64,000 bases of DNA from an uncultured Eubacteriales bacterium. GTDB taxonomy: Bacteria > Bacillota > Clostridia > Christensenellales > UBA1242. The stretch covers positions 67,231-131,230 of the forward strand of contig CARJLX010000001.1 of the NCBI GenBank assembly GCA_949001935.1, written 5' to 3'. The notes under the pieces are model-generated. The model was not told the DNA's origin, did no database searches, and saw nothing but the letters and a program-made list of their open reading frames with translations. Shown here one piece after another: positions 6,964-57,865 of this stretch (position 1 is its first letter; each line of letters starts with the position of its first letter). The position numbers were made by a program, and so were the translations under genes.

Positions 6964-7232
6964 ACCGAGCTAGATGGGGAGTTAGCGGTGCCCTGTACCT
7001 GCAATCCGCTATAGCAGGGTTGACGATTTGTTTCGGTTTAAACTTTTTAAAAATGTGCGATTATTTTTAATGTTGAAGTCAAGGTCTTATGCAAGTAAAA
7101 TCTATGAACCAGGTCAGAGCCTGACGGCAGCATCCTTAAGTGGACACTTTACTGTGCCATAGGGAAGCTTTGGTGGAGTTAAAATTAGTCGAGGCAGTTG
7201 GGAAGTTTTTATCAACGCAAATTGCTCGGGCT
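6964..7232 (+). ncRNA. ffs: Signal recognition particle RNA, long Bacillus type with Alu domain (scRNA)
   Basis: GGGGAGTTAGCGGTGCCCTGTACCTGCAATCCGCTATAGCAGGG nearly matches the B. subtilis scRNA Alu-domain sequence as I remember it. The domain IV-like segment is ATGAACCAGGTCAG...GGCAGCA..TTAAGTG. The 5' CCGAGC pairs with the 3' GCTCGG, and the gene has its own promoter and terminator. Confidence 0.85.
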
Positions 7233-9565: not shown

Positions 9566-10771
9566 ATGGCAAGAGTAGATTGGGAATTTTTGCTAAGAAC
9601 AGACAATATGTTAAAGAAAGGATATTGGGACACTAACGACACAGTTAGAACAAAGTGGGAAGACGGAACACCTGCACACACTGTTAAAGGGTTTTCAGCC
9701 TACAACCTTTACGATATGAGAGAAGGTTTTCCAATTTCAACACTTCGAAAAATAAATGGGGATGCTGCAATTGATGAGGTTCAATGGATTTGGCAATTAA
9801 AGAGCAACAACGTTAAAGATTTGCATAGTCACATTTGGGATCAATGGGCAGACGAAAATGGATCTATTGGCAAGGCTTATGGTTGGCAAGTTGCACAAAA
9901 GTCAAAATACAGCTGGGGTGAAGCCGATCAAACAGATATGGTGCTTCACGAACTCAAATTTAATCCGGCTTCAAGAAGAATTCTTACAGAGCTTTTTAAG
10001 CATGAAGATTTGCATGCTATGAGACTTGAACCTTGTGTTCATGGAATGCAGCTTGATGTTGCTGGTGATACTCTCAATATGTTTTTAAATCAACGCTCAA
10101 ACGACACTTTGGCGGCTGGGAATTGGAATGTTGTGCAATATTCAGCACTTTTACATATGCTTGCGCAAGTTAGTGGATTAAAGCCAGGTGTTCTTGCTCA
10201 TGAAATTGTAAACCCTCATATTTATGACCGTCATGTTCCTTTCATTGTTGATATAACTCTTTCAAGAGCAAAGAAAATTGAAGAACTTGCAGGGGAAATT
10301 TTTCGATCAGGAACAAAAATGTGTAATGCTATATACAATATGACTGATGAAGAGGAATCGGCTTTTAAACTTTTTATTAATCAACTTGTAGATAGATTTG
10401 GTCATCCAGTTTCTTATAAAGATCTAATTAAACAAGCACAAGATTTAGAACTTGAAAATGATAAGCATGATGCAACATTCTACGAAAATTATGCAAAAGA
10501 GTTTGTAGAGACTCCACAATTTAAAAAAGCAGAATATATTGTTGAAACAATGATTAAGTATCCAGAGTTTGAAAAAGCTTTCAATTTCTGTTCTCCAAAG
10601 CTTATTCTTGATCCTAGCGTTACAAATTTCTATGATTTTAAATCACCACTCACAACAGACAAAGAAACTGGCAAGTTTGTTCCTAGTGAAGATAGTTCTT
10701 TCAAAGTTGAAGATTACAACTGGAAAGAAGAAGGAATCAAATTGCAATGTGCAGTTCCTGTGGCTGAATAA
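9566..10771 (+). CDS. thyA: Thymidylate synthase (ThyA, B. subtilis ThyA-like subtype) with large internal insertions
   Basis: Catalytic-Cys context LEPCVHGMQ, plus NQRSND, HIYDRH and C-terminal ...FYDF...FKVEDY...AVPVAE. At 401 aa it is much longer than the usual 264-320 aa. Confidence 0.8.
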   Translation: MARVDWEFLLRTDNMLKKGYWDTNDTVRTKWEDGTPAHTVKGFSAYNLYDMREGFPISTLRKINGDAAIDEVQWIWQLKSNNVKDLHSHIWDQWADENGSIGKAYGWQVAQKSKYSWGEADQTDMVLHELKFNPASRRILTELFKHEDLHAMRLEPCVHGMQLDVAGDTLNMFLNQRSNDTLAAGNWNVVQYSALLHMLAQVSGLKPGVLAHEIVNPHIYDRHVPFIVDITLSRAKKIEELAGEIFRSGTKMCNAIYNMTDEEESAFKLFINQLVDRFGHPVSYKDLIKQAQDLELENDKHDATFYENYAKEFVETPQFKKAEYIVETMIKYPEFEKAFNFCSPKLILDPSVTNFYDFKSPLTTDKETGKFVPSEDSSFKVEDYNWKEEGIKLQCAVPVAE

Positions 10772-10809: not shown

Positions 10810-10859
10810 TTTTGATTTTTAAAGATTTTAAGATATAATTGCACTATGGAGGAATTATT

Positions 10860-11528
10860 ATGAGTTGTCCTATTAATATGAAAGGGTTTGGACCTAGCCC
10901 TATTCCTGAGGAAGCAAATTGGGTTCAAGCAAAAGAAATTACACAAATTTCAGGATTTAGTCATGGGTGCGGAAAGTGTGCACCTCAGCAAGGCACTTGC
11001 AAATTGACTTTGAATGTTAAGAATGGTGTTATCAAAGAGGCTCTTGTTGAAACTATCGGTTGCAGTGGTATGACACATTCGGCTGCTATGGCTGGCGAAA
11101 TTTTGACTGGGAAGACTATTTTAGAGGCTTTAAATACAGACCTTGTTTGTGACGCAATCAATGACGCCATGAAGCAAATCTTTTTGCAACTTGTTTATGG
11201 CAGAAGTCAATCTGCTTTTTCTGAAGGTGGTTTAGAGGTAGGAGCAGGGCTTGAAGATTTAGGTAAAAATTTGACAAGTCAGGTGGGGACTATTTATTCA
11301 AGAGAAGACACTGGCACTAGATACTTGAATTTGGCAGAAGGATATATCACAAAAGAAGGGCTTGACAAAAACGGCGAAATTATTGGTTATGAATATGTGA
11401 ACATTGGTGCACTTATGAATTTGCTAAAAGACGAAAAGGTTGATGTAAAAGAAGCTGTGAAGAAAGCAACCAAAACTTATGGGCGTTTTGATGAAGCGGT
11501 CACTGTGATTGACCCAAGGAGGGATTAA
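10860..11528 (+). CDS. NifU-N-like (Fe-S scaffold-like) domain protein, partner of the GGGtGRT protein
   Basis: Start at ATG 10860, behind GGAGGA. It carries a Cys pattern (CGKC ... GCSG) in a U-type-scaffold-like N-terminal half, and GGGtGRT follows after a 2-nt gap. Confidence 0.55.
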   Translation: MSCPINMKGFGPSPIPEEANWVQAKEITQISGFSHGCGKCAPQQGTCKLTLNVKNGVIKEALVETIGCSGMTHSAAMAGEILTGKTILEALNTDLVCDAINDAMKQIFLQLVYGRSQSAFSEGGLEVGAGLEDLGKNLTSQVGTIYSREDTGTRYLNLAEGYITKEGLDKNGEIIGYEYVNIGALMNLLKDEKVDVKEAVKKATKTYGRFDEAVTVIDPRRD

Positions 11529-11530
11529 GA

Positions 11531-12514
11531 ATGGATTACATGAAAAAATATCTTGGAATTAAAGACGCTCTAAAAAAGTATGGGATAAAGTCACTTGACG
11601 ACGCCAAAGAGATTTGTTCTAAAAACGGAATAAATGTTGAAGAGATTGTTAAAGGTATTCAACCTATTTGTTTTGATAGTGCAGTTAAGGCTTATGAACT
11701 TGGCTGTGCAATTGCTATTAAAGCAAAAGTTAAAACGGCTAGCGATGCATCACTTAAAATAGGTGAGGGCTTGCAAGCATTTTGTGAAAAGGGCTCTGTT
11801 GCAGATGACCGTCAAATCGGTCTTGGTCATGGCAGGCTGGGTGCAATGCTTCTTGATGAAAAGACGAAAAGTTTTGCATTTTTGGCAGGACATGAAAGTT
11901 TTGCGGCTGCTGAAGGAGCAATTGGAATTGCCCGTACTGCAAACAAGGTTAGAAAAACACCTTTAAATGTTATCTTGAATGGTCTTGGCAAGGATGCTGC
12001 TTACATTATTTCAAGAATTAATGGGTTCACTTTTGTTCAAACTGAGTTTGACCATAAAACTGGAAAGCTTAAAGTTGTAAAGAAAATTCCTTTTTCAAAA
12101 GGTGATAAGGCAAAGGTTAAATGTTATGGTGCTTATGATGTGCCAGAAGGTGTTGCTATTATGCAAATTGAAAAGGTTGATGTTTCAATAACTGGCAATT
12201 CTACAAATCCTGTGCGTTTCCAACATCCAGTTGCGGGAACTTACAAAAAGTGGTGCGTTGAAAACGGCAAGCAATATTTTTCTGTTGCTTCTGGTGGCGG
12301 AACAGGAAGAACACTTCATCCAGACAATATGGCAGCAGGTCCTGCAAGTTATGGGTTGACTGATACTATGGGAAGAATGCACTCTGATGCTCAATTCGCA
12401 GGTTCTTCATCAGTGCCTGCACATGTCGCAATGATGGGCTTTATTGGCATGGGCAATAATCCAATTGTAGGGGCAACAGTGGCATTATCTGTTGCGGTTG
12501 CTACAAGAAAATAA
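11531..12514 (+). CDS. GGGtGRT-family protein (uncharacterised conserved family)
   Basis: 327 aa carrying the eponymous SGGGTGRTLHPDN motif. Confidence 0.75.
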   Translation: MDYMKKYLGIKDALKKYGIKSLDDAKEICSKNGINVEEIVKGIQPICFDSAVKAYELGCAIAIKAKVKTASDASLKIGEGLQAFCEKGSVADDRQIGLGHGRLGAMLLDEKTKSFAFLAGHESFAAAEGAIGIARTANKVRKTPLNVILNGLGKDAAYIISRINGFTFVQTEFDHKTGKLKVVKKIPFSKGDKAKVKCYGAYDVPEGVAIMQIEKVDVSITGNSTNPVRFQHPVAGTYKKWCVENGKQYFSVASGGGTGRTLHPDNMAAGPASYGLTDTMGRMHSDAQFAGSSSVPAHVAMMGFIGMGNNPIVGATVALSVAVATRK

Positions 12515-12589
12515 AATTGGTACCAAATGTGCCGCGACTAGACTATGAATAAAATTGTTGAATGTAGAAAAATATTGCCATTGGCACAA

Positions 12590-12617
12590 AATAGGTCTTG
12601 AAATAGACCTTTTTTTG
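12590..12617 (+). terminator. Intrinsic terminator after the GGGtGRT operon
   Basis: Hairpin AGGTCT-tgaaat-AGACCT followed by T7. Confidence 0.75.
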
Positions 12618-12646
12618 TGGTATAATCATTTTGTTAGGAGATTAGA

Positions 12647-14290
12647 ATGGGAACATTAAAAATTACAGAAGATGATATTACAAAAATTATTCTTGGCAGA
12701 GTTAATTCTGAAGCAGAAAAATATTGGATTAAGTCTATGATTCGAGCTTTGCCATCAACCTTAGAAGGCACAGTTGTTGAGGTTGCACCAATCGAAGTTG
12801 ACGGGGGAGGGAATTCAAAAGTTACTTTTGATAAATTCACTATTAATATTGAAGGCGAACTTGCTAAATATGCTGATGAAATAAACCAAGATTATGTAGA
12901 CATTATGTGTGAAATTCAACCTGAGTTTAAAAGGTTCTATGAAAAATCTATGGAAGCAATAGAAGAAAAGACTAGAATTTTTAAGCAAAGATTATTGGAA
13001 GAATTTAATAAAAATGGCTATGTAAAAAATGACATTAAATGTATTCTTACTGGCACTGGTGTTAAAGATTTAACTCAACGGTTAGAAGCTATTAAGCATG
13101 GCGAATTTATTGCACCGATTTCAAATAAACTTAATACCCCTAATAGAAAATTCGAGCAAGGTGAAGTTTATTATGCAAATTTAAATCCTGCTTTAGTCGG
13201 TGAATTTGCAGGAGTTAGGCCAGTTGTTATTGTTGCGTGTAATGATTTTTCACTCACAATTTTGCCACTAACAAGTAAATTGGAACAAAAGGGAAACGAA
13301 GAATATCATGTTTTAGTAAAAGCAGATAAATATGATGTTAAGAATTTTACAGATTCTATTGTTTGTACTGAAGTTGTCAAAACTGTCGATAAAAGTAGAA
13401 TTTACGGCAAGGTTTTGACTTTAGATGAAGAAGATACTAATAAAATTGTAGAATTAATGGGAAAACGACTTTTTGGTGACAAATATCTTGCTCCAAGTGA
13501 TGAGTATGAAGCTTATGATATTTTTAGCGAAGAAGAGGTAGAAAAATTTGAGCGTGAGCAAGAATTAGAAGAAAAAAAGAAGGCTGAACAAGCAACCTTA
13601 AAGCAAGATAAATCGCTTAAACCTTCAAATACATTCCATACAGTGGAAAAGTTTATCAATAATCCACAAAGTGAATGCACAATTGGTGAAATTTTATATG
13701 GGATTAAAGAAGAAAAAGTTGAGGACAAAAATTTTATATGTGTAGTAGATAATTCTGTAAAGAAAACGCCAGCAGTTATTTATGAATTGACGGATGAAGA
13801 AGCCATTCAAATTTGTGAACAAAAATTTGAGGGGATGAGAGCAAATGGTTCAAGATTATCTTTTCAAGATCCTATTGTTTTAAGTAATAATTCTCTTCAA
13901 GAAGGCATTAAAATTGCATATAACACAAAAAATGTTAATGGAAAAGAGGGGAAATATTACACAGAAATTTCTTTATCCTCATTTTATGGAACATATGAAT
14001 GCGGAAGTAAAAAAAATAATAATGATATGGATTTAACTTTGTATTTGGCTTCAAAAATGGTTGAAAAATATGGAGATCATTATAAAAACAATTTCTGTAA
14101 GAATTATGTTAAGTATTTTAATAGATTTTATGAATATAATGGTGATCTAAATAAAAATATTAATCTTTTAGATTACTTCTTAAGTTTTGTTGGCAAAAAA
14201 GCAAATAATTCAAATGAATTGGTTATCAATGGATTAAGTGCATATGATTATTATAGTCTAGAAGATATAACAGAAGACGTACAGCAATAA
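12647..14290 (+). CDS. Multidomain protein with an embedded MazF/PemK-like endoribonuclease domain (residues about 168-277 of 547)
   Basis: GEVYYANLNPALVGEFAGVRPVVIVA...ILPLTSK...SIVCTEVVKTVDKSRIYGKVLTLDEEDTNKIVELMGKRL matches the MazF/PemK pattern end to end. Unrecognised regions of about 165 aa (N-terminal) and about 270 aa (C-terminal) flank it. Confidence 0.7.
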   Translation: MGTLKITEDDITKIILGRVNSEAEKYWIKSMIRALPSTLEGTVVEVAPIEVDGGGNSKVTFDKFTINIEGELAKYADEINQDYVDIMCEIQPEFKRFYEKSMEAIEEKTRIFKQRLLEEFNKNGYVKNDIKCILTGTGVKDLTQRLEAIKHGEFIAPISNKLNTPNRKFEQGEVYYANLNPALVGEFAGVRPVVIVACNDFSLTILPLTSKLEQKGNEEYHVLVKADKYDVKNFTDSIVCTEVVKTVDKSRIYGKVLTLDEEDTNKIVELMGKRLFGDKYLAPSDEYEAYDIFSEEEVEKFEREQELEEKKKAEQATLKQDKSLKPSNTFHTVEKFINNPQSECTIGEILYGIKEEKVEDKNFICVVDNSVKKTPAVIYELTDEEAIQICEQKFEGMRANGSRLSFQDPIVLSNNSLQEGIKIAYNTKNVNGKEGKYYTEISLSSFYGTYECGSKKNNNDMDLTLYLASKMVEKYGDHYKNNFCKNYVKYFNRFYEYNGDLNKNINLLDYFLSFVGKKANNSNELVINGLSAYDYYSLEDITEDVQQ

Positions 14291-14315
14291 AAAGTGGCAA
14301 AAGCCACTTTTTTTG
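14288..14315 (+). terminator. Intrinsic terminator (GTGGCA-aaa-GCCAC type)
   Basis: TAA-AAAGTGGCAAAAGCCAC followed by T7, starting at the stop codon. Confidence 0.8.
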
Positions 14316-14393
14316 ATTATTTTTGATTTTTGTTTTACTTTTTTTAAAATTTTGTATATTCTATTTATATAGTTATTTTTTCAAGGAGAAATT

Positions 14394-15128
14394 ATGGCAG
14401 AAAAAAAAGTAAATGAAAGCAATGCTAGAAGATTTCTTAATGCTTTCAATAATATTGATTATGCTTTAAAAACGCGTTATGGCATGCATAGAAGTATGGG
14501 TTTTTCTGATATGATTAGAAAAACGGTTGTTCTTAATTATATTGTTCGTAAAAATGAAGATAGTTTGATTGATTATGGGCGTCTTAGAAATGCTATTATT
14601 CACAATGCAAACGAAGATATTGTTATTGCAGAACCTCATGATAGTGTGGTTGAGGATATTGAGCGTATAGAAAAACTTTTAACAACTCCTCCTAAGGCTT
14701 TAGATTCGGTTGCTCATCGTGATGTTTTAACTATTAGTGCAGATAAAAGCATGTATGATGTTATCACTTTAATGGCAAACTCTAAGTATTCAAATATTCC
14801 TGTTTACAATGGTGAAGTTTTGATGGGCGTTGCAAATGGTCAAAAAATATTGGACTCTTTTGGACAATTTCTTTTAGCTGGTGGCAAGAGTGATGTTTTC
14901 TTAAAAAGTGTTAAGATTGAAGATATGCTCTCTGCACTTGAAAATTCTAATTATTATGTTATTGCTTCAAGTGACGTGACTGTTGAGGAAGCTTTAAATG
15001 AATTTCATAAAAATCCAAAATTGCTTGCAATTTTGATTACTCCAAATGGTGAAATTAATCAAAAGGTTTTGGGTATTGTCACAGGCAGTGACGTTATGGA
15101 TATGAATAAGATTATGGATTTATATTGA
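14394..15128 (+). CDS. HEPN-like (Rx4H) N-terminal domain fused to a CBS-domain pair
   Basis: Residues 1-95 are helical and carry YGRLRNAIIHN (R65-x4-H70). Residues about 100-244 form two CBS-like repeats (VLTISADKSMYDVITLMANSKYSNIPVY..., and VTVEEALNEFHKNPKLLAILIT). Confidence 0.6.
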   Translation: MAEKKVNESNARRFLNAFNNIDYALKTRYGMHRSMGFSDMIRKTVVLNYIVRKNEDSLIDYGRLRNAIIHNANEDIVIAEPHDSVVEDIERIEKLLTTPPKALDSVAHRDVLTISADKSMYDVITLMANSKYSNIPVYNGEVLMGVANGQKILDSFGQFLLAGGKSDVFLKSVKIEDMLSALENSNYYVIASSDVTVEEALNEFHKNPKLLAILITPNGEINQKVLGIVTGSDVMDMNKIMDLY

Positions 15129-15668: not shown

Positions 15669-18600
15669 ATGAAAAAAGAAAATTCAATGCCAAATTTTGT
15701 TGAGATGGAACATGGTGTTCTAAAATTTTGGAATGACAACAAATGTTTCAACAAGCTTCAAGCGCAAAATGCAGGACACGAGCGTTTTAAATTTTTGGAC
15801 GGCCCAGCAACAGCAAATAATCGTTTAGGAATTCATCATTTTTGGGGAAGAACACTTAAAGATATGACTATTCGTTATAACGCCCTTAAAGGTAGGGATT
15901 GCCAATTTCAAAATGGTTTTGACGGTCAAGGTCTTTGGGTGGAAGTTAATGTTGAAAAAGAATTAGGGCTTAACGGCAAGCCAGAAATTCAACAATATGG
16001 AATTGATAAATTTACCAACAAGTGTATGGAGCGTGTTGCATATTTTGGCAATGAAATAACAAATCAATCTAAGCGTATGGGGCAATGGATGGATTGGGAT
16101 CATAGTTATTACACCAACACTGATGAAAATATAACTTCTATTTGGCATTTTCTTAAAAAATGTGATGAAAAAGGTTGGATTGTTAAGAAAAATAGACCTA
16201 TGGCTTGGTGTCCTCGTTGCGGAACAAGTTTAAGTGAACATGAGATGTCATCTTCTTATCATGAAGTTGAACATACAGCTATTTATGCTAAATTCCCTGT
16301 TAAAGGTAAGGATTTTTATATTATTGCATGGACAACTACTCCTTGGACATTGTCAGCTAATGTAGCCCTTGCTGTTAATCCAGAGTTTGATTATGTTAAA
16401 GTGGAATTTAATGGTGAAAAGATTGTTTTAGGTAAAGATAGATTAAAACTTTTAAAACAAGAGGTAAAAATTCTTGAGACTTTTAAAGGTTCACAGCTTG
16501 TTGGGCTTGAATATGAAACTTGTTTTCCTGAACTAACAGAACAAAATTTTGTGCACCATGTTGTTGCATGGGATGAAGTATCAAATGAAGATGGTTCTTG
16601 TGTCGTTCACATTGCACCAGGTTGTGGAGCTGAAGATTTTGAGCTTGGAGTATCATTAGGACTTCCTGAAATTTGTCCAATTAACGAACAAGGCGTAATG
16701 CTTCCTTCAACTGGTTTCTTGGCTGGTAAAAAGACTACTGAAGTTATAGATATGGTTGTTGACAGACTTAAACAAGACAACAAATTGTTATATGCACATA
16801 AACACAAGCATTCATATCCTTTCTGTTGGAGATGTAAAACTGACCTCGTTTACAAACTTATAAATGCATGGTTTATCAAGGTTGACGAAATTCGCCCAAT
16901 GGCACTCAAAGCTATTGAAGAAGTTGAGTTTAAGCCTGAATATGCTAAAAAGCGTATGGTTGATTGGCTTACAAACATGGGTGACTGGAACATTTCGAGA
17001 AGTCGTTTTTATGGGCTTCCACTTCCTTTCTATGTTTGTGAAAAGTGTGGAAAAGTTCATGTTATTGGATCACTAGAAGAACTTAAAGCTAAGGCAGTTG
17101 ACCCTAGTCTTGTAGATAATTTACCAAATATTCACAGGCCTTGGATTGATGAAATCAAAATTAAATGTGAGTGTGGTGAAGAGCTTTCTCGAATTCCAGA
17201 GGTTGGAGATGTTTGGCTTGATGCTGGTATCACACCTTTCTCAACTAAGAAATATTTTACTGATAAAAAGTTCTTTGAAGAAAATTTCCCAAGCGATTAT
17301 GTTTGCGAAATGATTGAACAAATTAAGCTTTGGTTCTACTCACTTTTAATGATGAGTGTTGTTCTGACAGGTAAAGCTCCCTACAAAAAGGTTGTGACTT
17401 ATCAATATGTTCGTGACGAAAATGGAGGAGAGTTCCACAAGAGTGGTGGAAATTCTTTGGAAGCTGACCATGTGGCAGACAAGGTGGGGGCAGATGTTGT
17501 GCGTTATCTTTATTGTTCTTCAAGTCCTGTAAACGATATGCGTTTCGGTTTCAATTTAACAGACGAGGCAAGGCGTAAACTTTTAGGTTTTTGGAATATT
17601 TACACTTTCTTTAACACATATGCTTGTATTGACAATCCAGACATTGCTGATTTTTACCCAAAAGAGAAAGATCTTTCTTATGCTGACAAGTGGCTTATTG
17701 AAAGCGTGAATAAGTTTATCATTGAAAGTGATGAAAACTTTGCCAATGATAGAAACAACTTTGTTGTTCGGGATTTTGAAAAGCTCGTTGATGATATTTC
17801 AAATTACTACATTCGTGCAAACCGTAAGCGTTTCTGGAAGAGTGAAAATAAAAATGATCAATTAACAGCTTATTGGTGCTTGTATTATGCTATCAAATCA
17901 ATTATTCAAGTTATGACACCAATAATACCATTTATGACAGAATATATCTGGCAAAATATGGTTAGAGCGGTTGAAGAAAATGAAAAAGAATGCATTATGC
18001 TTGCAGGTTTCCCAGAAAAGCTTTACGACAAAGCTTTTGATGGCGTACTTGAAACAACACAAATTGCAAGAGATATTATGTCTACTGCTCAACGCCTTAG
18101 AAATGAAAATCAAATTAAGGTTAAGCAACCTTTAAGAAAAATGTTTGTTGCAGGTAGTGAAAATGTAGATAAGGTTATCGAAAATCTTGGAGAAATTATT
18201 AAGGACGAACTTAATATCAAAGAGATTGAGCGCGTAACTGACGACTCTATGTTCAATGACGAATATTTATCTGTCAACTTTAAAAAGGCTGGTGCAGTAC
18301 TTAAAGGTGATGTCCAAAAACTGAAGAATGCTTTGGCAGAACTTTCAGATGAACAAATTAAATTTGTTATGAATGGTTATCATTCAGGCAAGGTGAGCGT
18401 AGGTGAATTTAAAGATTTAGACAGTGAACTTTTCAATCTTGAAAAGAGACCAAAAACAGACTTTGTTATCGCTCACGAAAATGGAAACACTGTTGTGCTT
18501 GATATTAATCTAGATAGAGCTTTAATTTTGGAAGGCTATTATAGAGAGTTTGTGAGAGGACTTCAAGTTCTTCGAAAAGAGGCTGACCTTTCTATTGATG

Positions 18601-18788
18601 AACGAATTTATGTTTACTTTGAAACTGGTGACGATGACTTGGCTGAAATGTTATTTGAGTTTATGGATAAAATTAAGCAAGAAGTTTTGATTATTCGAGC
18701 AGTAGAAAAAATTGTTAAACCTATTATTGAAAAAAATATTGAGGTAGGTGACAGTTTTATTATTGCTAAGTTTGAAAAAGCTGAATAA
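15669..18788 (+). CDS. ileS: Isoleucine--tRNA ligase (type 2, long form)
   Basis: About 1039 aa. The N-terminal class-I pattern F.FLDGPATANN.LGIHH...KD...RY matches the actinobacterial/clostridial type-2 IleRS pattern. It has the zinc motif WCPRCGT and a preceding Ile T-box. Start set at ATG 15669, behind AAGGAGAAGG; the ORF track uses TTG 15651. Confidence 0.9.
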   Translation: MKKENSMPNFVEMEHGVLKFWNDNKCFNKLQAQNAGHERFKFLDGPATANNRLGIHHFWGRTLKDMTIRYNALKGRDCQFQNGFDGQGLWVEVNVEKELGLNGKPEIQQYGIDKFTNKCMERVAYFGNEITNQSKRMGQWMDWDHSYYTNTDENITSIWHFLKKCDEKGWIVKKNRPMAWCPRCGTSLSEHEMSSSYHEVEHTAIYAKFPVKGKDFYIIAWTTTPWTLSANVALAVNPEFDYVKVEFNGEKIVLGKDRLKLLKQEVKILETFKGSQLVGLEYETCFPELTEQNFVHHVVAWDEVSNEDGSCVVHIAPGCGAEDFELGVSLGLPEICPINEQGVMLPSTGFLAGKKTTEVIDMVVDRLKQDNKLLYAHKHKHSYPFCWRCKTDLVYKLINAWFIKVDEIRPMALKAIEEVEFKPEYAKKRMVDWLTNMGDWNISRSRFYGLPLPFYVCEKCGKVHVIGSLEELKAKAVDPSLVDNLPNIHRPWIDEIKIKCECGEELSRIPEVGDVWLDAGITPFSTKKYFTDKKFFEENFPSDYVCEMIEQIKLWFYSLLMMSVVLTGKAPYKKVVTYQYVRDENGGEFHKSGGNSLEADHVADKVGADVVRYLYCSSSPVNDMRFGFNLTDEARRKLLGFWNIYTFFNTYACIDNPDIADFYPKEKDLSYADKWLIESVNKFIIESDENFANDRNNFVVRDFEKLVDDISNYYIRANRKRFWKSENKNDQLTAYWCLYYAIKSIIQVMTPIIPFMTEYIWQNMVRAVEENEKECIMLAGFPEKLYDKAFDGVLETTQIARDIMSTAQRLRNENQIKVKQPLRKMFVAGSENVDKVIENLGEIIKDELNIKEIERVTDDSMFNDEYLSVNFKKAGAVLKGDVQKLKNALAELSDEQIKFVMNGYHSGKVSVGEFKDLDSELFNLEKRPKTDFVIAHENGNTVVLDINLDRALILEGYYREFVRGLQVLRKEADLSIDERIYVYFETGDDDLAEMLFEFMDKIKQEVLIIRAVEKIVKPIIEKNIEVGDSFIIAKFEKAE

Positions 18789-18940: not shown

Positions 18941-19543
18941 ATGGAAACCAAGTACTTAAAAGGAGAGATAGAAAAGTTTGATTACAGCAAAATTATTTTG
19001 ACCTATCAACAATATTCACATGCAGATTTATGTAAAACAGGGCCGTGTGAGAATGGTGGGGAAAGTAATAGAATGTGTTGCAAGCCATTTATTCATCGTA
19101 TTCATGAACCAAAAAATATGCATACATTGCCAAAACATCCACATTGTGATTGTTTTTACAAAATTGTCAAAACAAAGTCGTTTGGAAGTATTTCTAAAAA
19201 AGGAACAGAGGCACCAGATGTATGGCTTAAACTCTTTCGCAAATTGCCTGACTATTATATAACAGAGCAAGAAGCAATAGAAGTTTATGGTTGGAACAAA
19301 AATAAAAACACAATTTCGGGCAAAGCACCCGGTAAAATGATAGGTGGAGATGTTTATAAAAATAACAAGCATATTTTGCCAGAAAAAGACGGAAGAGTTT
19401 GGTATCATTGTGATGTTGATTATGAATACGGTGCAAGAAATAGTCTAAGATTATATTATTCAAATGATGGATTGATGTTTTATTCACCAACACACCTTGA
19501 TGGGGATGTAATAGTTTATCAAATAAAAGGAAGTGAAAAATAA
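18941..19543 (+). CDS. Barnase-family ribonuclease toxin with short N-terminal MuF-like (HPxCxC) remnant
   Basis: The C-terminal 100 aa align by eye with barnase: KLPDYYITEQEAIEVYGW / APGKMIGGDVY / GRVWYHCDVDY / GARNSLRLYYS / THLDG. The N-terminus carries LPKHPHCDCFY. Confidence 0.85.
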   Translation: METKYLKGEIEKFDYSKIILTYQQYSHADLCKTGPCENGGESNRMCCKPFIHRIHEPKNMHTLPKHPHCDCFYKIVKTKSFGSISKKGTEAPDVWLKLFRKLPDYYITEQEAIEVYGWNKNKNTISGKAPGKMIGGDVYKNNKHILPEKDGRVWYHCDVDYEYGARNSLRLYYSNDGLMFYSPTHLDGDVIVYQIKGSEK

Positions 19544-19544
19544 A

Positions 19545-19871
19545 ATGAAAGAATTAATTTTTAATAGAAAGGATTACAAAAATTATCAAGAAATGTATAG
19601 TGATATGGCGATAAAATTTGGAGATGTTGGAACACAAGATTATTATGATACTTCATGTTTTGATTTTAATCCAGATATTTTATGGGAATTTTTGTTATGT
19701 TCATATGCGTTTACAAAAATTGATATAAAAATTGTTTTAGTTGGGTTTGCCCGAGAAAAGATTAAAGAAGAAAAAAATTATAACGATTATGAGTATAATA
19801 TGATTTTAAATGTTTTTGAAGATTTTGTTAAAGAATATCCAAATAATAAATTAGAATTTAGGGATGAATAA
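19545..19871 (+). CDS. Barstar-like immunity protein
   Basis: 108 aa, starting immediately after the toxin stop. FNPDILWEFLLC resembles the barstar inhibitory helix (ENLDALWDCLTG). Confidence 0.7.
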   Translation: MKELIFNRKDYKNYQEMYSDMAIKFGDVGTQDYYDTSCFDFNPDILWEFLLCSYAFTKIDIKIVLVGFAREKIKEEKNYNDYEYNMILNVFEDFVKEYPNNKLEFRDE

Positions 19872-25388: not shown

Positions 25389-26329
25389 ATGAAACTTTTA
25401 GATGAAATTTTGAAGAAAAAAGAAGAGGTTTTCACAAGTTGTGGTGAAAATGTGAAAATTGATAGTATTATGATTGAGAACAATGGCGAGGTTGCTCAGC
25501 ATTTTTACAAACCTGATGGGCTGCATGAAATGAGAAGTATAAGCAAAGTTATGATTGCCTTAGCTTACGGAATTGCCATAGATAGGCAAATTCTTGGCGG
25601 GGGGGGTATCAGTTAACTCTTGATACGCTTGTTTATCCAATTCTTAAAGATTTGACTGAGATTAGAAATAAAGACAATATAGATAAAATCAAAAAGTGGA
25701 CGATTAAAACACTTTTAACTTATTCGGCTGGTTATGAAAACCAAATGTTTTCTAATAAATTTATCAAAGATATTTATCCTAAAAATTATGTTGAATATTG
25801 TTTAAACTACCCATTAAAAAATCAACCTAACACCAAATATGTCTATAACAATGCCGAACCCTTCTTACTTTCAGTTTGTTTTCAAGAATATTTTGGAATT
25901 AATATTAAAGATTTTATTGTAAAAGAAATTTTCAAACCTTTAAAAATTAAAGATTTTATCTGGAAAAACTACGACAAATATTGTCCTGGTGGCACTGGGC
26001 TTTATCTTTCTCACAAAGATTTATTTAAAATTGGGCAGTTGATTTTAAGCAAAGGAAATTTTGAAGGCAGGCAAATTATAAGCAAAAGATATATTGAACA
26101 AATGTGTTCAACGCAAATGCAAACTCCATATGCTGTAAAGCCAGAGAGGGTTTTACCAAAAGAAAGTGTCGGGCTTGTGATGAAAATTTCAAGAAATGGC
26201 TATGTCTTTAAGGATGCGAAAAATGGCCAATACTTGATTGTTAATTTTGACAAGAATTTGCTTATCACAATTTTGGCAAGTGAAAAAGAAATGCAGTTTG
26301 TGACTGAAATTTTGAGAGGAGTTATTTAA
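25389..26329 (+). pseudogene. Serine hydrolase (beta-lactamase/PBP-like family) interrupted by a frameshift in a G8 tract
   Basis: ORF 25389-25616 carries the SxxK motif (SISK). ORF 25652-26329, in another frame, carries YxN (YNN). The second frame stays open back to the G run at 25599-25606, and G9 or G6 would fuse the two into ...LGGG(G)YQLTLDTLVYPILKDL.... Confidence 0.75.
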
Positions 26330-56820: not shown

Positions 56821-57801
56821 TTAAATTTTTGATATGATAACCTTTATTGTCTTGATGCTTATAAAGGCTAGAAATGCTGTTAGAATTATTATTGTAATCA
56901 AGTATAATAAAATATTGAACGCTAGATTTTGTGTAATATTTAATAGTGATAATGCTCCAACTGCAAAAATATGATGTGATAAATATATGTAAAAACTGTA
57001 TTTATCACTATAAATTAATATTTTATATGTAGGTTTATTATTTAAAAATTCAAAAGCGATTAATATTATAAAGGAAAATGTTAAAGCGAATATAACTGCA
57101 CAAATTCGTTGGAGAAAAAGTGAAAGGTGGTACAACATAAAAGTATTTTGAGGAAAGCAATGTATAAAGTACATAAAGGGTAAAACAGTTATTAGAAAAA
57201 TTAAAATGCAGATAAAAATGCTTTTATTTTTTTGTTTATAAACTTTTTCTAAAGTTTGAAACCTACTTAAAGCAAATCCTATTACAAAGATAATAATTCC
57301 TAATTGCATACTTGTAAACAAGCAAATGATTGTTTCAAGAATTAAAAATATACTTAAAAATACTATTGCAAGTTTGTTATATTTATGGGATTTATCAAAG
57401 GCAATTTTTATCAATGGAAGTATGAGATAACATATAAATATATTTGGTATAAACCATAGGTGTCCTAAGGCAAACAATTCTGAGGATATATAACTCCACC
57501 AGTTTAAAGGATTTATTGCATTAGTGGCAAAGATTGTACAGAGGAAAAATTCTATTAAACAGAGAAAAAGTACAGGAATAAAAATTTTAATTGCTCGATT
57601 TAAATAAAATTTTTTAATATTTTTTATTTCAATTTTTTCATATAAATATCCACTTATAAAAAAGAAAACTTGAACTCCAAAATATAAAGGTATTATACCC
57701 GCACCTTTCCAGGGGCTAAGAATCATTAAAATATGATAAATTACAATCATAATTGCCGACAAACATCTTAGCACACTGACATTATTTAATCTTTTGTTCA
57801 T
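56821..57801 (-). CDS. Membrane acyltransferase, family 3 (OafA/YrhL-like O-acyltransferase)
   Basis: 326 aa with about 10 TM segments. The N-terminal LRCLSAIMIVIYH motif is typical of acyltransferase_3 proteins. Confidence 0.75.
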   Translation of the reverse strand: MNKRLNNVSVLRCLSAIMIVIYHILMILSPWKGAGIIPLYFGVQVFFFISGYLYEKIEIKNIKKFYLNRAIKIFIPVLFLCLIEFFLCTIFATNAINPLNWWSYISSELFALGHLWFIPNIFICYLILPLIKIAFDKSHKYNKLAIVFLSIFLILETIICLFTSMQLGIIIFVIGFALSRFQTLEKVYKQKNKSIFICILIFLITVLPFMYFIHCFPQNTFMLYHLSLFLQRICAVIFALTFSFIILIAFEFLNNKPTYKILIYSDKYSFYIYLSHHIFAVGALSLLNITQNLAFNILLYLITIIILTAFLAFISIKTIKVIISKI

Positions 57802-57837: not shown

Positions 57838-57865
57838 AGTATATTGCGGGGGGGGGACTTGTCAA
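57838..57865 (-). promoter_or_regulatory. Acyltransferase promoter with a C9 homopolymer in the -35/-10 spacer
   Basis: The minus strand reads TTGACA-agtCCCCCCCCCgcaa-TATACT (16-nt spacer), then GAGGGAG and the ATG at 57801. Confidence 0.6.

Follow-up and report, generated by a model that had tools for sequence, protein, structure and literature searches.

How can a bacterium keep a MazF-type toxin domain in a gene that has no antitoxin gene beside it? This question is raised by a 64,000-nt stretch of DNA (in the following "the window") from an uncultured Eubacteriales bacterium of the Christensenellales lineage UBA1242 (assembly GCA_949001935.1, contig CARJLX010000001.1, positions 67,231 to 131,230 of the forward strand), in which one gene encodes a protein of 547 aa with a MazF/PemK domain in its interior. 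To our knowledge, characterised MazF toxins are small stand-alone proteins that are checked by a separately encoded MazE. The answer that we favour, tentatively and with somewhat less than even confidence, is that the gene would represent a self-contained, lineage-specific MazF system, in which an acidic linker plus a C-terminal domain (here called C-module) replace MazE. An initial annotation, made from the sequence of the window alone, had described a complete MazF/PemK domain between two unknown regions, which was borne out by the open reading frame (ORF), the Pfam match and the predicted fold. The domain order of the protein, which we refer to as the fusion, is N-domain, MazF unit, acidic linker and C-module, with the following features:

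12647..14290, plus strand: whole coding sequence, ATG start, 547 aa plus stop (ORF list)
12647..13015, plus strand: N-domain, residues 1-123, consisting of a helix, four strands and a long helical hairpin (AlphaFold, predicted local distance difference test (pLDDT) 80-89; boundary by hmmsearch on N-C proteins, in which N-domain and C-module are joined directly)
13016..13147, plus strand: N-terminal extension of the MazF unit, residues 124-167 (alignment of 15 fusions)
13148..13486, plus strand: MazF/PemK endoribonuclease core, residues 168-280 (Pfam, PDB phmmer, Foldseek, residue conservation, ratio of nonsynonymous to synonymous substitutions (dN/dS))
13202-13204, plus strand: substrate-loop Glu186 (aligned to Glu20 of B. 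subtilis MazF, beta1-beta2 loop)
13217-13219, plus strand: predicted catalytic Arg191 (aligned to B. subtilis Arg25)
13271-13273, plus strand: predicted catalytic Thr209 (aligned to B. subtilis Thr48)
13487..13762, plus strand: acidic, aromatic-rich linker, residues 281-372 (charge, motifs, model)
13763..14287, plus strand: C-module, residues 373-547, consisting of one helix, 4-5 strands and four helices (pLDDT 82-95; repeat unit by alignment)

Residues 168-280 belong to the MazF/PemK (Kid/CcdB-fold) superfamily, on which profile, fold and catalytic residues agree. The Pfam profile PemK_toxin (PF02452) matched residues 170-268 with E=1.2e-15 and 58 bits (cut-off 23.1) and was covered from position 1 to 102 of its 109 positions, and all seven fusions scanned matched the same profile with E-values of 1e-13 to 4e-18. 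The nearest PDB sequence in a phmmer search was B. subtilis EndoA/YdcE (4mdx, 1ne8; E=4e-11 over residues 170-271), whereby the window MazF core is 30% identical to B. subtilis MazF. PHROG 1936, annotated as "MazF-like growth inhibitor", was matched with E=1e-20. A first AlphaFold model, built from 8 sequences, folded the flanking regions and left the MazF core at a pLDDT below 50, the alignment being too shallow; with a 20-sequence alignment, the core of the second model reached a pLDDT of 80-90. This second model aligned to the RNA-bound B. subtilis MazF chain 4mdx_A with a target-normalised template modelling (TM) score of 0.82 and a root-mean-square deviation (rmsd) of 1.9 Å over 113 columns (Foldseek E=1.5e-8). 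Foldseek against the PDB yielded 100 matches at E<=1e-3, and among the matches listed MazF-family chains accounted for 50 of 50.

Arg25 and Thr48 are the experimentally validated catalytic pair of B. subtilis and B. cereus MazF, and Ser is a known functional stand-in for the catalytic Thr (PMC7354611). The initial annotation had proposed to check the catalytic and substrate-loop residues, and these turned out to be retained: over 15 fusions at 25-40% identity, neither Arg191 nor Glu186 ever varies, and position 209 holds Thr or Ser throughout. Compared with B. subtilis MazF, the beta2-beta3 loop lacks about 5 residues. In comparison with the 91%-identical allele of locus L020, dN/dS came to 0.118 (N region), 0.110 (MazF) and 0.135 (C-module), with 0.129 for the full-length fusion, and N-domain, MazF and C-module are all under purifying selection. 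Because of the invariant Arg191 and Glu186, the restriction of position 209 to Thr or Ser and a dN/dS of 0.11, the MazF domain looks catalytically competent, as would be expected of a working enzyme rather than a relic.

The regions around the core could be delimited more closely. Of the approximately 165-aa N-terminal domain that had been annotated, residues 1-123 stand as an independent domain, which in the MazF-less paralogs P0016 and P0018 (P numbers denote proteins and L numbers recovered loci) is joined directly to a C-module. Residues 124-167 go with the MazF core instead. They occur only together with MazF and are absent from the MazF-less N-C paralogs, for which reason we regard them as part of the MazF unit. 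A nearly invariant motif, H151..P157..N160..R167, runs through this segment in the 15 fusions; model confidence is low at residues 121-157. The annotated C-terminal region of approximately 215 aa resolves into a short leader and a new, repeatable module of approximately 175 residues, as found by aligning 25 non-redundant copies. Relatives of 727 aa hold two such modules. Common to the copies are a helix beginning with LT(D/E)EE, the motifs KYG..Y and IGK and an acidic tail at the C-terminus; the subtypes into which they fall are old (terminal cis, internal cis, free 248-aa type and N-C type). Their conserved residues are mainly aromatic, Lys and Gly, with no catalytic-looking triad. The isoelectric point (pI) varies from 5 to 9 across copies and acidity is confined to the tails, which speaks against the C-module being a uniformly acidic nucleic-acid mimic.

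The MazF motifs quoted in the initial annotation and the acidic linker stretch EEEVEKFEREQELEEKKKAEQ were found as described. The latter covers residues 295-315; the linker also contains an IFSEEE motif (292-297), and a helix is predicted at 295-320, whereby the pLDDT of the linker is low to moderate. Further along, the linker contains a TIGEILYG leader helix (343-350); such a leader precedes C-modules generally. The 45 residues that follow the MazF core are acidic and aromatic-rich, with a net charge of -4 to -15, in 14 of 14 fusions examined, and within the close family F293 and E297 never vary. PMC7354611 discusses aromatic residues of MazE. By analogy, we infer that the acidic aromatic segment behind MazF resembles those MazE C-terminal regions that fill the MazF groove, and that the linker might act as a MazE-like pseudo-substrate.

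For N-domain and C-module, no significant relative was detected in Pfam, NCBIfam, PADLOC, PDB sequences (profiles) or by Foldseek in the PDB or BFVD, and the C-module had no relatives in phage records; in the collections searched, both are undescribed orphan domains. This is in line with the remark of the initial annotation that it did not recognise the architecture, of which no description was found in the literature searched either. Several candidate relationships were rejected. The N-domain might have been a diverged C-module, having the same order of secondary-structure elements and a similar LTEEE start, but hhalign gave a probability of 1.2%. A UBC/E2-like fold was the sole recurring Foldseek theme for the C-module, but with E-values of 3-5, TM scores below 0.2 and no conserved Cys. 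Matches of the N-domain to DUF4085 or phage tail tube (E 0.007-0.05, below cut-offs) and of the C-module to MtmB or colicin E1 (E 0.03-0.1) were judged to be noise.

The family is small. A word-indexed search of 5.8 billion proteins returned seven relatives, and a scan of 185,579 species genomes found the family in three metagenome-assembled genomes, all from uncultured Firmicutes and one labelled Christensenella sp. An exhaustive phmmer search of 1.84 billion representatives, with the N-domain plus C-module of the window as query and MazF removed, gave 23 matches. One of these, P0026 (1549 aa, 7 matching stretches), was discarded as a low-complexity repeat artefact, which leaves 22 members. 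Word-indexed searches with a C-module alignment or the MazF core were uninformative, since known family members were missed too. Among full-length relatives, P0001 and the protein of L007 are 91-97% identical to the window fusion and the others 30-41%. The architectures of the recovered loci, obtained by hmmsearch, are as follows:

Window, L020 and L005: N-MazF-C
L001, L006 and L008: N-MazF-C-C
L009 and L021: N-MazF-C-C plus a free C-module gene downstream, at a distance of 12 bp in L009 and 15 bp in L021
L007: N-MazF-C, preceded at 52 bp by a free 248-aa C-module gene
L011: N-MazF-C behind two free C-module genes, with a 38-bp gap
L015: N-MazF gene cut off by the contig end, with a free C-module 14 bp upstream
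L014 and L018: free C-module alone, no MazF in the slot in the recovered sequence
L010 and L016: N-C proteins without MazF; L010 also has an N-MazF gene

The C-module is thus the constant element of the locus, present in one to three copies, fused or free-standing, and 15 of 15 MazF-bearing proteins with their C-terminus on record carry one or two copies in cis. C-modules occur without MazF but MazF was never seen without a C-module, which by analogy is the asymmetry typical of toxin/antitoxin pairs. Together with the alternation of fusion and fission, the operon-like spacing and the lack of a MazE, this asymmetry argues that the C-module is the cognate or functional partner of this MazF clade. 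With respect to MazE, a phmmer search in all frames of the window with B. subtilis and E. coli MazE queries detected no MazE-like sequence, nor was a second MazF, C-module or N-domain found there.

The statement that there is no separate antitoxin gene holds for the window but not for all relatives. In L007 a free 248-aa C-module gene (1036-1782) lies in an antitoxin-like position upstream, between the GGGtGRT gene and a fusion that is 97% identical to that of the window, where the window (12515-12646) and L020 have only a short spacer. Close relatives are polymorphic for the presence of this gene. It cannot be an antitoxin that the fusion depends on, since the window and L020 do without it and L014 has it alone. 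P0016 was likewise considered as a MazF-deleted ortholog, which was rejected because L010 also has an N-MazF gene across the uracil-DNA glycosylase (UDG) gene. Canonical EndoA-type MazEF pairs, consisting of a 76-77-aa ORF and a 115-aa PemK protein (E about 1e-46 to B. subtilis MazF), are present near acpS in relatives, roughly 6-8 kb from the fusion (L001 16573-17137; L008 ~18310-18648; L009 ~19256-19594; L021 8267-8819); within the 64-kb window no such pair was found. A canonical RelB/ParE-YafQ toxin-antitoxin (TA) pair was noticed beside UDG in L014 (3515-4058), which has the free C-module and no MazF fusion.

The initial annotation had proposed to survey the neighbourhoods of homologs for defence-island enrichment. 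None was seen: every locus recovered has the family gene in one and the same housekeeping block, and PADLOC gave no significant hit for the window protein or nine relatives. The block runs UDG, thymidylate synthase (ThyA or ThyX), a NifU-like protein of ~225 aa plus GGGtGRT, the family gene(s), a protein with a cystathionine beta-synthase (CBS) pair and IleRS, and in a rearranged version the flank consists of TyrRS, Impact, RecX and AcpS. The synteny holds among relatives that are only 30-40% identical. Searches of JGI metagenomes (by DNA pattern and protein profile), IMG/VR, phage records and plasmids turned up no family member; what the phage, viral and plasmid collections did match were generic MazF cores only, at 31-38% identity. 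Judged by gene order and sequence, the fusion locus is vertically inherited in a narrow lineage and not a mobile island. One relative encodes SpoIVA nearby, and so the clade includes spore formers.

A further property of the gene is a run of guanines in the N-domain:

12803..12811, plus strand: GGGGGAGGG, encoding Gly53-Gly54-Gly55, an interrupted form of the relatives' G9 (sequence comparison)

An uninterrupted G9 stands in frame at the homologous Gly-Gly-Gly in L001 (position 8157), L003, L004, L006 (208), L007 (1991), L008 (10157), L011 (8890) and L020 (2108), and L011 keeps it though its protein is only about 32% identical. In L009 the tract is G8 (10157) and the gene is frameshifted, whereby some tract-length differences may be assembly errors. 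Several protein records break near this place as well: P0027 ends just past the Gly loop, P0009 and P0015 start just past it, and P0002 starts ~30 residues later. GGG makes up 12.6% of the Gly codons in the window's genome, the 4 other Gly triplets of long ORFs all include at least one codon other than GGG, and the expectation for G9 or C9 runs is 0.025 per 64 kb. The tract was not found in a metagenome scan. Taken together, the conserved G9 suggests slipped-strand phase variation of the MazF fusion in most relatives. Since the tract is interrupted in the window (GGGGGAGGG), the window allele should be stably on and is probably a "locked-on" form. Such a tract would suggest a costly, conditionally useful gene rather than a housekeeping enzyme. 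Poly-G contingency loci with slipped-strand phase variation occur in Campylobacter, Haemophilus and Neisseria. The fusion is like them in having a G9 in the 5' coding region that is conserved across lineages and a G8 out-of-frame allele in relatives; it differs in that the window allele is interrupted and should not switch, and in that, for the relatives, switching within a population is putative.

Other poly-G tracts were observed both in the window and in the relatives. At 25599-25606 a G8 appears to split a serine-hydrolase/beta-lactamase-like gene (25389-26329; family assigned by eye) into a 75-aa ORF ending ...LGGGGIS* and a 225-aa remainder, with the break exactly at the G8, which looks like an off-state frameshift at a second poly-G tract. 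A membrane acyltransferase-like ORF (56821-57801, minus strand) and a SepF-like ORF (both by eye) are separated by a spacer with a G9 at 57848-57856, which could be a phase-variation tract that acts on promoter spacing. Two of the free C-module genes contain further G9/C9 tracts, in P0017 close to the acidic tail and in P0023 at residue ~60, and one more lies 43 bp upstream of the P0012 fusion (L011 8649, L018 7179, L021 129). An intergenic tract upstream of UDG is G9 or G8 depending on the sample (L001, 6933, vs L002, 6934).

Compared with described systems, the fusion is not a canonical two-gene MazEF module. It has the toxin fold of MazEF/EndoAI-EndoA (NdoAI-NdoA) from Firmicutes and keeps the equivalents of Arg25 and Thr48, and its acidic aromatic segment may be available for the RNA groove, as are MazE C-termini. 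However, the window has no MazE/PemI gene and no AbrB or ribbon-helix-helix (RHH) DNA-binding antitoxin domain. The toxin, a stand-alone protein of ~115 aa in MazEF, is here one domain of a 547-aa protein. Its partner is an unrelated domain of ~175 aa, fused and sometimes repeated, and the fusion adds an N-terminal MazF extension and a separate N-domain. Toxin and antitoxin on one polypeptide are known from the epsilon/zeta protein EzeT (PMC4826407) and from CapRel-SJ46, a fused toxSAS and antitoxin (PMC9712102). With these the fusion has in common that a toxin and a presumed neutralising domain lie on one chain, monocistronic and without a separate antitoxin, and CapRel-type toxSAS have split-gene versions among relatives, as does the module of the window fusion. 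The differences are the MazF RNase class, an unrelated partner domain and a housekeeping context instead of a defence island, and no similarity to EzeT or CapRel appeared in Pfam, PADLOC or Foldseek PDB searches. The single-chain TA idea of the initial annotation, modelled on CapRel, is therefore supported in part: it keeps its support from architecture, nuclease residues and novelty and loses the defence-island context, and autoinhibition by a flanking domain would be conjecture. The analogy to CapRel is restricted to logic, and a trigger or sensor role does not follow from it. That a MazF-type fold can be part of a larger multidomain protein has a precedent in CalpT of the type III CRISPR system CalpL-CalpT-CalpS, which is reported to have a MazF-like domain fused to an anti-sigma factor (bioRxiv 10.1101/2024.05.08.593097). 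Its partner domains are others, and no CRISPR, SAVED-Lon or sigma-factor genes lie near the window fusion.

On the reading that we tentatively favour, the C-module, probably with the acidic aromatic linker, would stand in for MazE and restrain the nuclease in cis or between the subunits of the expected MazF dimer. The hold might be lost when a ligand or protein binds the C-module, or by proteolysis of the exposed linker, and the freed nuclease would then cleave cellular RNA and cause growth arrest. The N-domain with its long helical hairpin may be an oligomerisation or scaffold element. In most relatives, the G9 in the N-domain would toggle the whole protein by slipped-strand frameshifting, whereas the interrupted tract of the window would leave expression constitutive from the gene's own sigma-70-type promoter. 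A rather doubtful extension of this is that the fusion is a phase-variable single-chain MazF whose C-module founds a new class of antitoxin or sensor, with the free paralogs as backup. A population of gut Firmicutes could then hedge by means of the poly-G tract, mixing cells with an armed RNase (abortive infection or growth arrest) and cells without it, and the fusion would be a chromosomally fixed contingency toxin, not a mobile TA module. Several observations weigh against the replacement of MazE by linker and C-module. Both AlphaFold models have a predicted TM score (pTM) of 0.37 and low-confidence linkers, so that the packing between domains is not readable. The free 248-aa module and the fusion each occur without the other (both in L007, the fusion only in the window, the module only in L014). 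P0014 (366 aa) could represent a MazF member whose C-module is truncated, and the C-module bodies, with pI 5-9, are not uniformly acidic. The vertically inherited housekeeping block bears no signature of a mobile element or defence island and the protein has no PADLOC hit. Finally, the C-module lineages are old and specialised, and some persist without MazF (L014, L018), as do N-C paralogs; C-modules therefore have a MazF-independent role, and the flanking domains are more than toxin regulators.

Another explanation, which we consider doubtful but possible, is that the fusion is a targeted nuclease or sensor-effector. Here the C-module would be a recognition domain and no inhibitor. It would bind a particular partner, of the cell or of an invader, which might be an RNA-protein complex, a phage protein or a small ligand, and bring MazF to it or activate MazF there. 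Free C-modules and N-C proteins would attach to that partner too, but as competitors or regulators that do not cut. It would make sense of the persistence of C-modules as independent conserved genes and N-C fusions, which implies a function of their own, of subtypes that diversified within one locus, as recognition modules often do, and of conserved aromatic, Lys and Gly residues without a catalytic-looking triad; a phase-variable tract also suits a conflict gene. However, no partner can be named, the defence-island context and PADLOC hit are missing, and the phage, viral-contig and plasmid collections searched yielded no member of the family. When unrestrained, a MazF that keeps its catalytic residues and lacks an antitoxin should be toxic, so that targeting still requires inhibition. 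It is unlikely, in our view, that the fusion is a domesticated housekeeping RNase with a narrow, non-toxic role in rRNA, tRNA or mRNA processing, in which the N- and C-terminal domains bind the substrate. The deeply conserved core-gene slot (UDG, thymidylate synthase, GGGtGRT pair, CBS, IleRS/TyrRS, RecX, AcpS) and purifying selection would fit such an enzyme, and the separate EndoA-type MazEF in the same genomes implies that the fusion is not their ordinary MazF. Yet the gene is dispensable, the slots of L014 and L018 having no MazF in the recovered sequence, and C-module copy number varies. L009 has a frameshifted allele, the conserved hypermutable G9 would imply on/off switching, which is unlike a housekeeping enzyme, and the spread is narrow (3 of 185,579 species genomes, 22 representatives in 1.84 billion). 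Very unlikely, finally, is a decayed MazF fold that serves as a structural or binding remnant and not as a nuclease. Non-toxin MazF-like folds have been reported in multidomain proteins such as CalpT (bioRxiv 10.1101/2024.05.08.593097), and the shorter beta2-beta3 loop would agree with decay. Against this stand the invariant Arg191 and Glu186 and the Thr/Ser at position 209 over 15 fusions, the dN/dS of 0.11 and the match of the model to RNA-bound B. subtilis MazF at 1.9 Å rmsd. In contrast to CalpT, the window fusion keeps the catalytic residues, which points to an active nuclease.

If the replacement of MazE by linker and C-module is true, a MazF clade would have swapped MazE for an unrelated, structurally novel domain welded to the toxin. 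The result would be a naturally occurring MazF switch on a single chain, along with a new fold for an antitoxin or sensor. The variants in the one slot, whether fused, split, duplicated or without toxin, would then be a rare natural experiment in TA evolution, and for uncultured gut Firmicutes the poly-G tract in a toxin-bearing gene would tie phase variation to TA biology. An RNase this compact and self-regulated could serve as a tool. If the protein is a domesticated enzyme instead, it would clearly illustrate how a toxin fold can be taken over for a cellular role.

Regarding expression, the initial annotation had given the gene its own promoter, ribosome-binding site and terminator, and sequence signals for all three are present (extended TATAAT -10, AGGAG, hairpin):

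12593..12626, plus strand: hairpin (12593-12610) and T run resembling a terminator of the GGGtGRT operon upstream, overlapping the fusion promoter (sequence reading; function inferred)
12598-12626, plus strand: predicted promoter with -35 TTGAAA at 12598-12603, a 17-nt spacer and extended -10 TG-TATAAT at 12621-12626 (consensus scan and sequence reading)
12636..12640, plus strand: ribosome-binding site AGGAG, 6 nt before the ATG (sequence reading)
14289..14322, plus strand: intrinsic-terminator-like hairpin (14289-14312; 10-bp stem with 4 G-C pairs), followed by a T run (sequence reading)

In the consensus scan, the predicted promoter TTGAAA-17-TG-TATAAT has 11 of 12 consensus matches and an extended -10. 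Neither the 132-bp upstream nor the 103-bp downstream spacer contains a plausible ORF of at least 20 aa with coding potential, which agrees with the annotated lack of a small upstream ORF. On these signals, the fusion gene is predicted to be monocistronic.

Identity to L020 is 98-100% in the tract 13475-14700, which extends from the linker across the C-module into the beginning of the CBS gene, whereas elsewhere in the locus, N-MazF and the GGGtGRT gene included, it is 81-91%. The most likely explanation for this pattern of identities would be a recent homologous recombination with one end inside the fusion gene. A divergent N-MazF allele as the cause of the mosaic synonymous divergence was rejected, because the flanks show that the 98-100% tract is the outlier.

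Upstream of the fusion, the window encodes a NifU-like protein of ~229 aa (weak NifU_N match, three Cys) and the GGGtGRT protein (PF14057, E=1.8e-179) at 10839-12514 (plus strand). This pair adjoins the C-module-bearing gene in nearly all loci, in either orientation, and no characterised function for the GGGtGRT family was found in the literature searched. The thymidylate synthase of the window (9566-10771, plus strand) is of the ThyA type (PF00303, 401 aa) with a C-terminal extension of ~160 aa. In relatives, a ThyX of 504-555 aa occupies the same position, and the swap in the slot beside UDG suggests a non-orthologous replacement. Downstream of the fusion lies the CBS-pair protein (14394-15128, plus strand), with homologs in L005, L011, L014 and L020. 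Its N-terminal ~100 aa are 79-86% identical to those of the window in three lineages, of which two carry fusions only 30-37% identical to the window's and one, L014, has no fusion. They contain an invariant R65-N-x3-H70 string that is reminiscent of HEPN; an assignment as HEPN domain on the basis of this invariant R-N-x3-H was rejected, as there was no Pfam or PDB profile support. Finally, the sole Rfam match of the window at the gathering threshold is a bacterial large signal recognition particle (SRP) RNA at 6965-7229 on the plus strand (RF01854, 164 bits).

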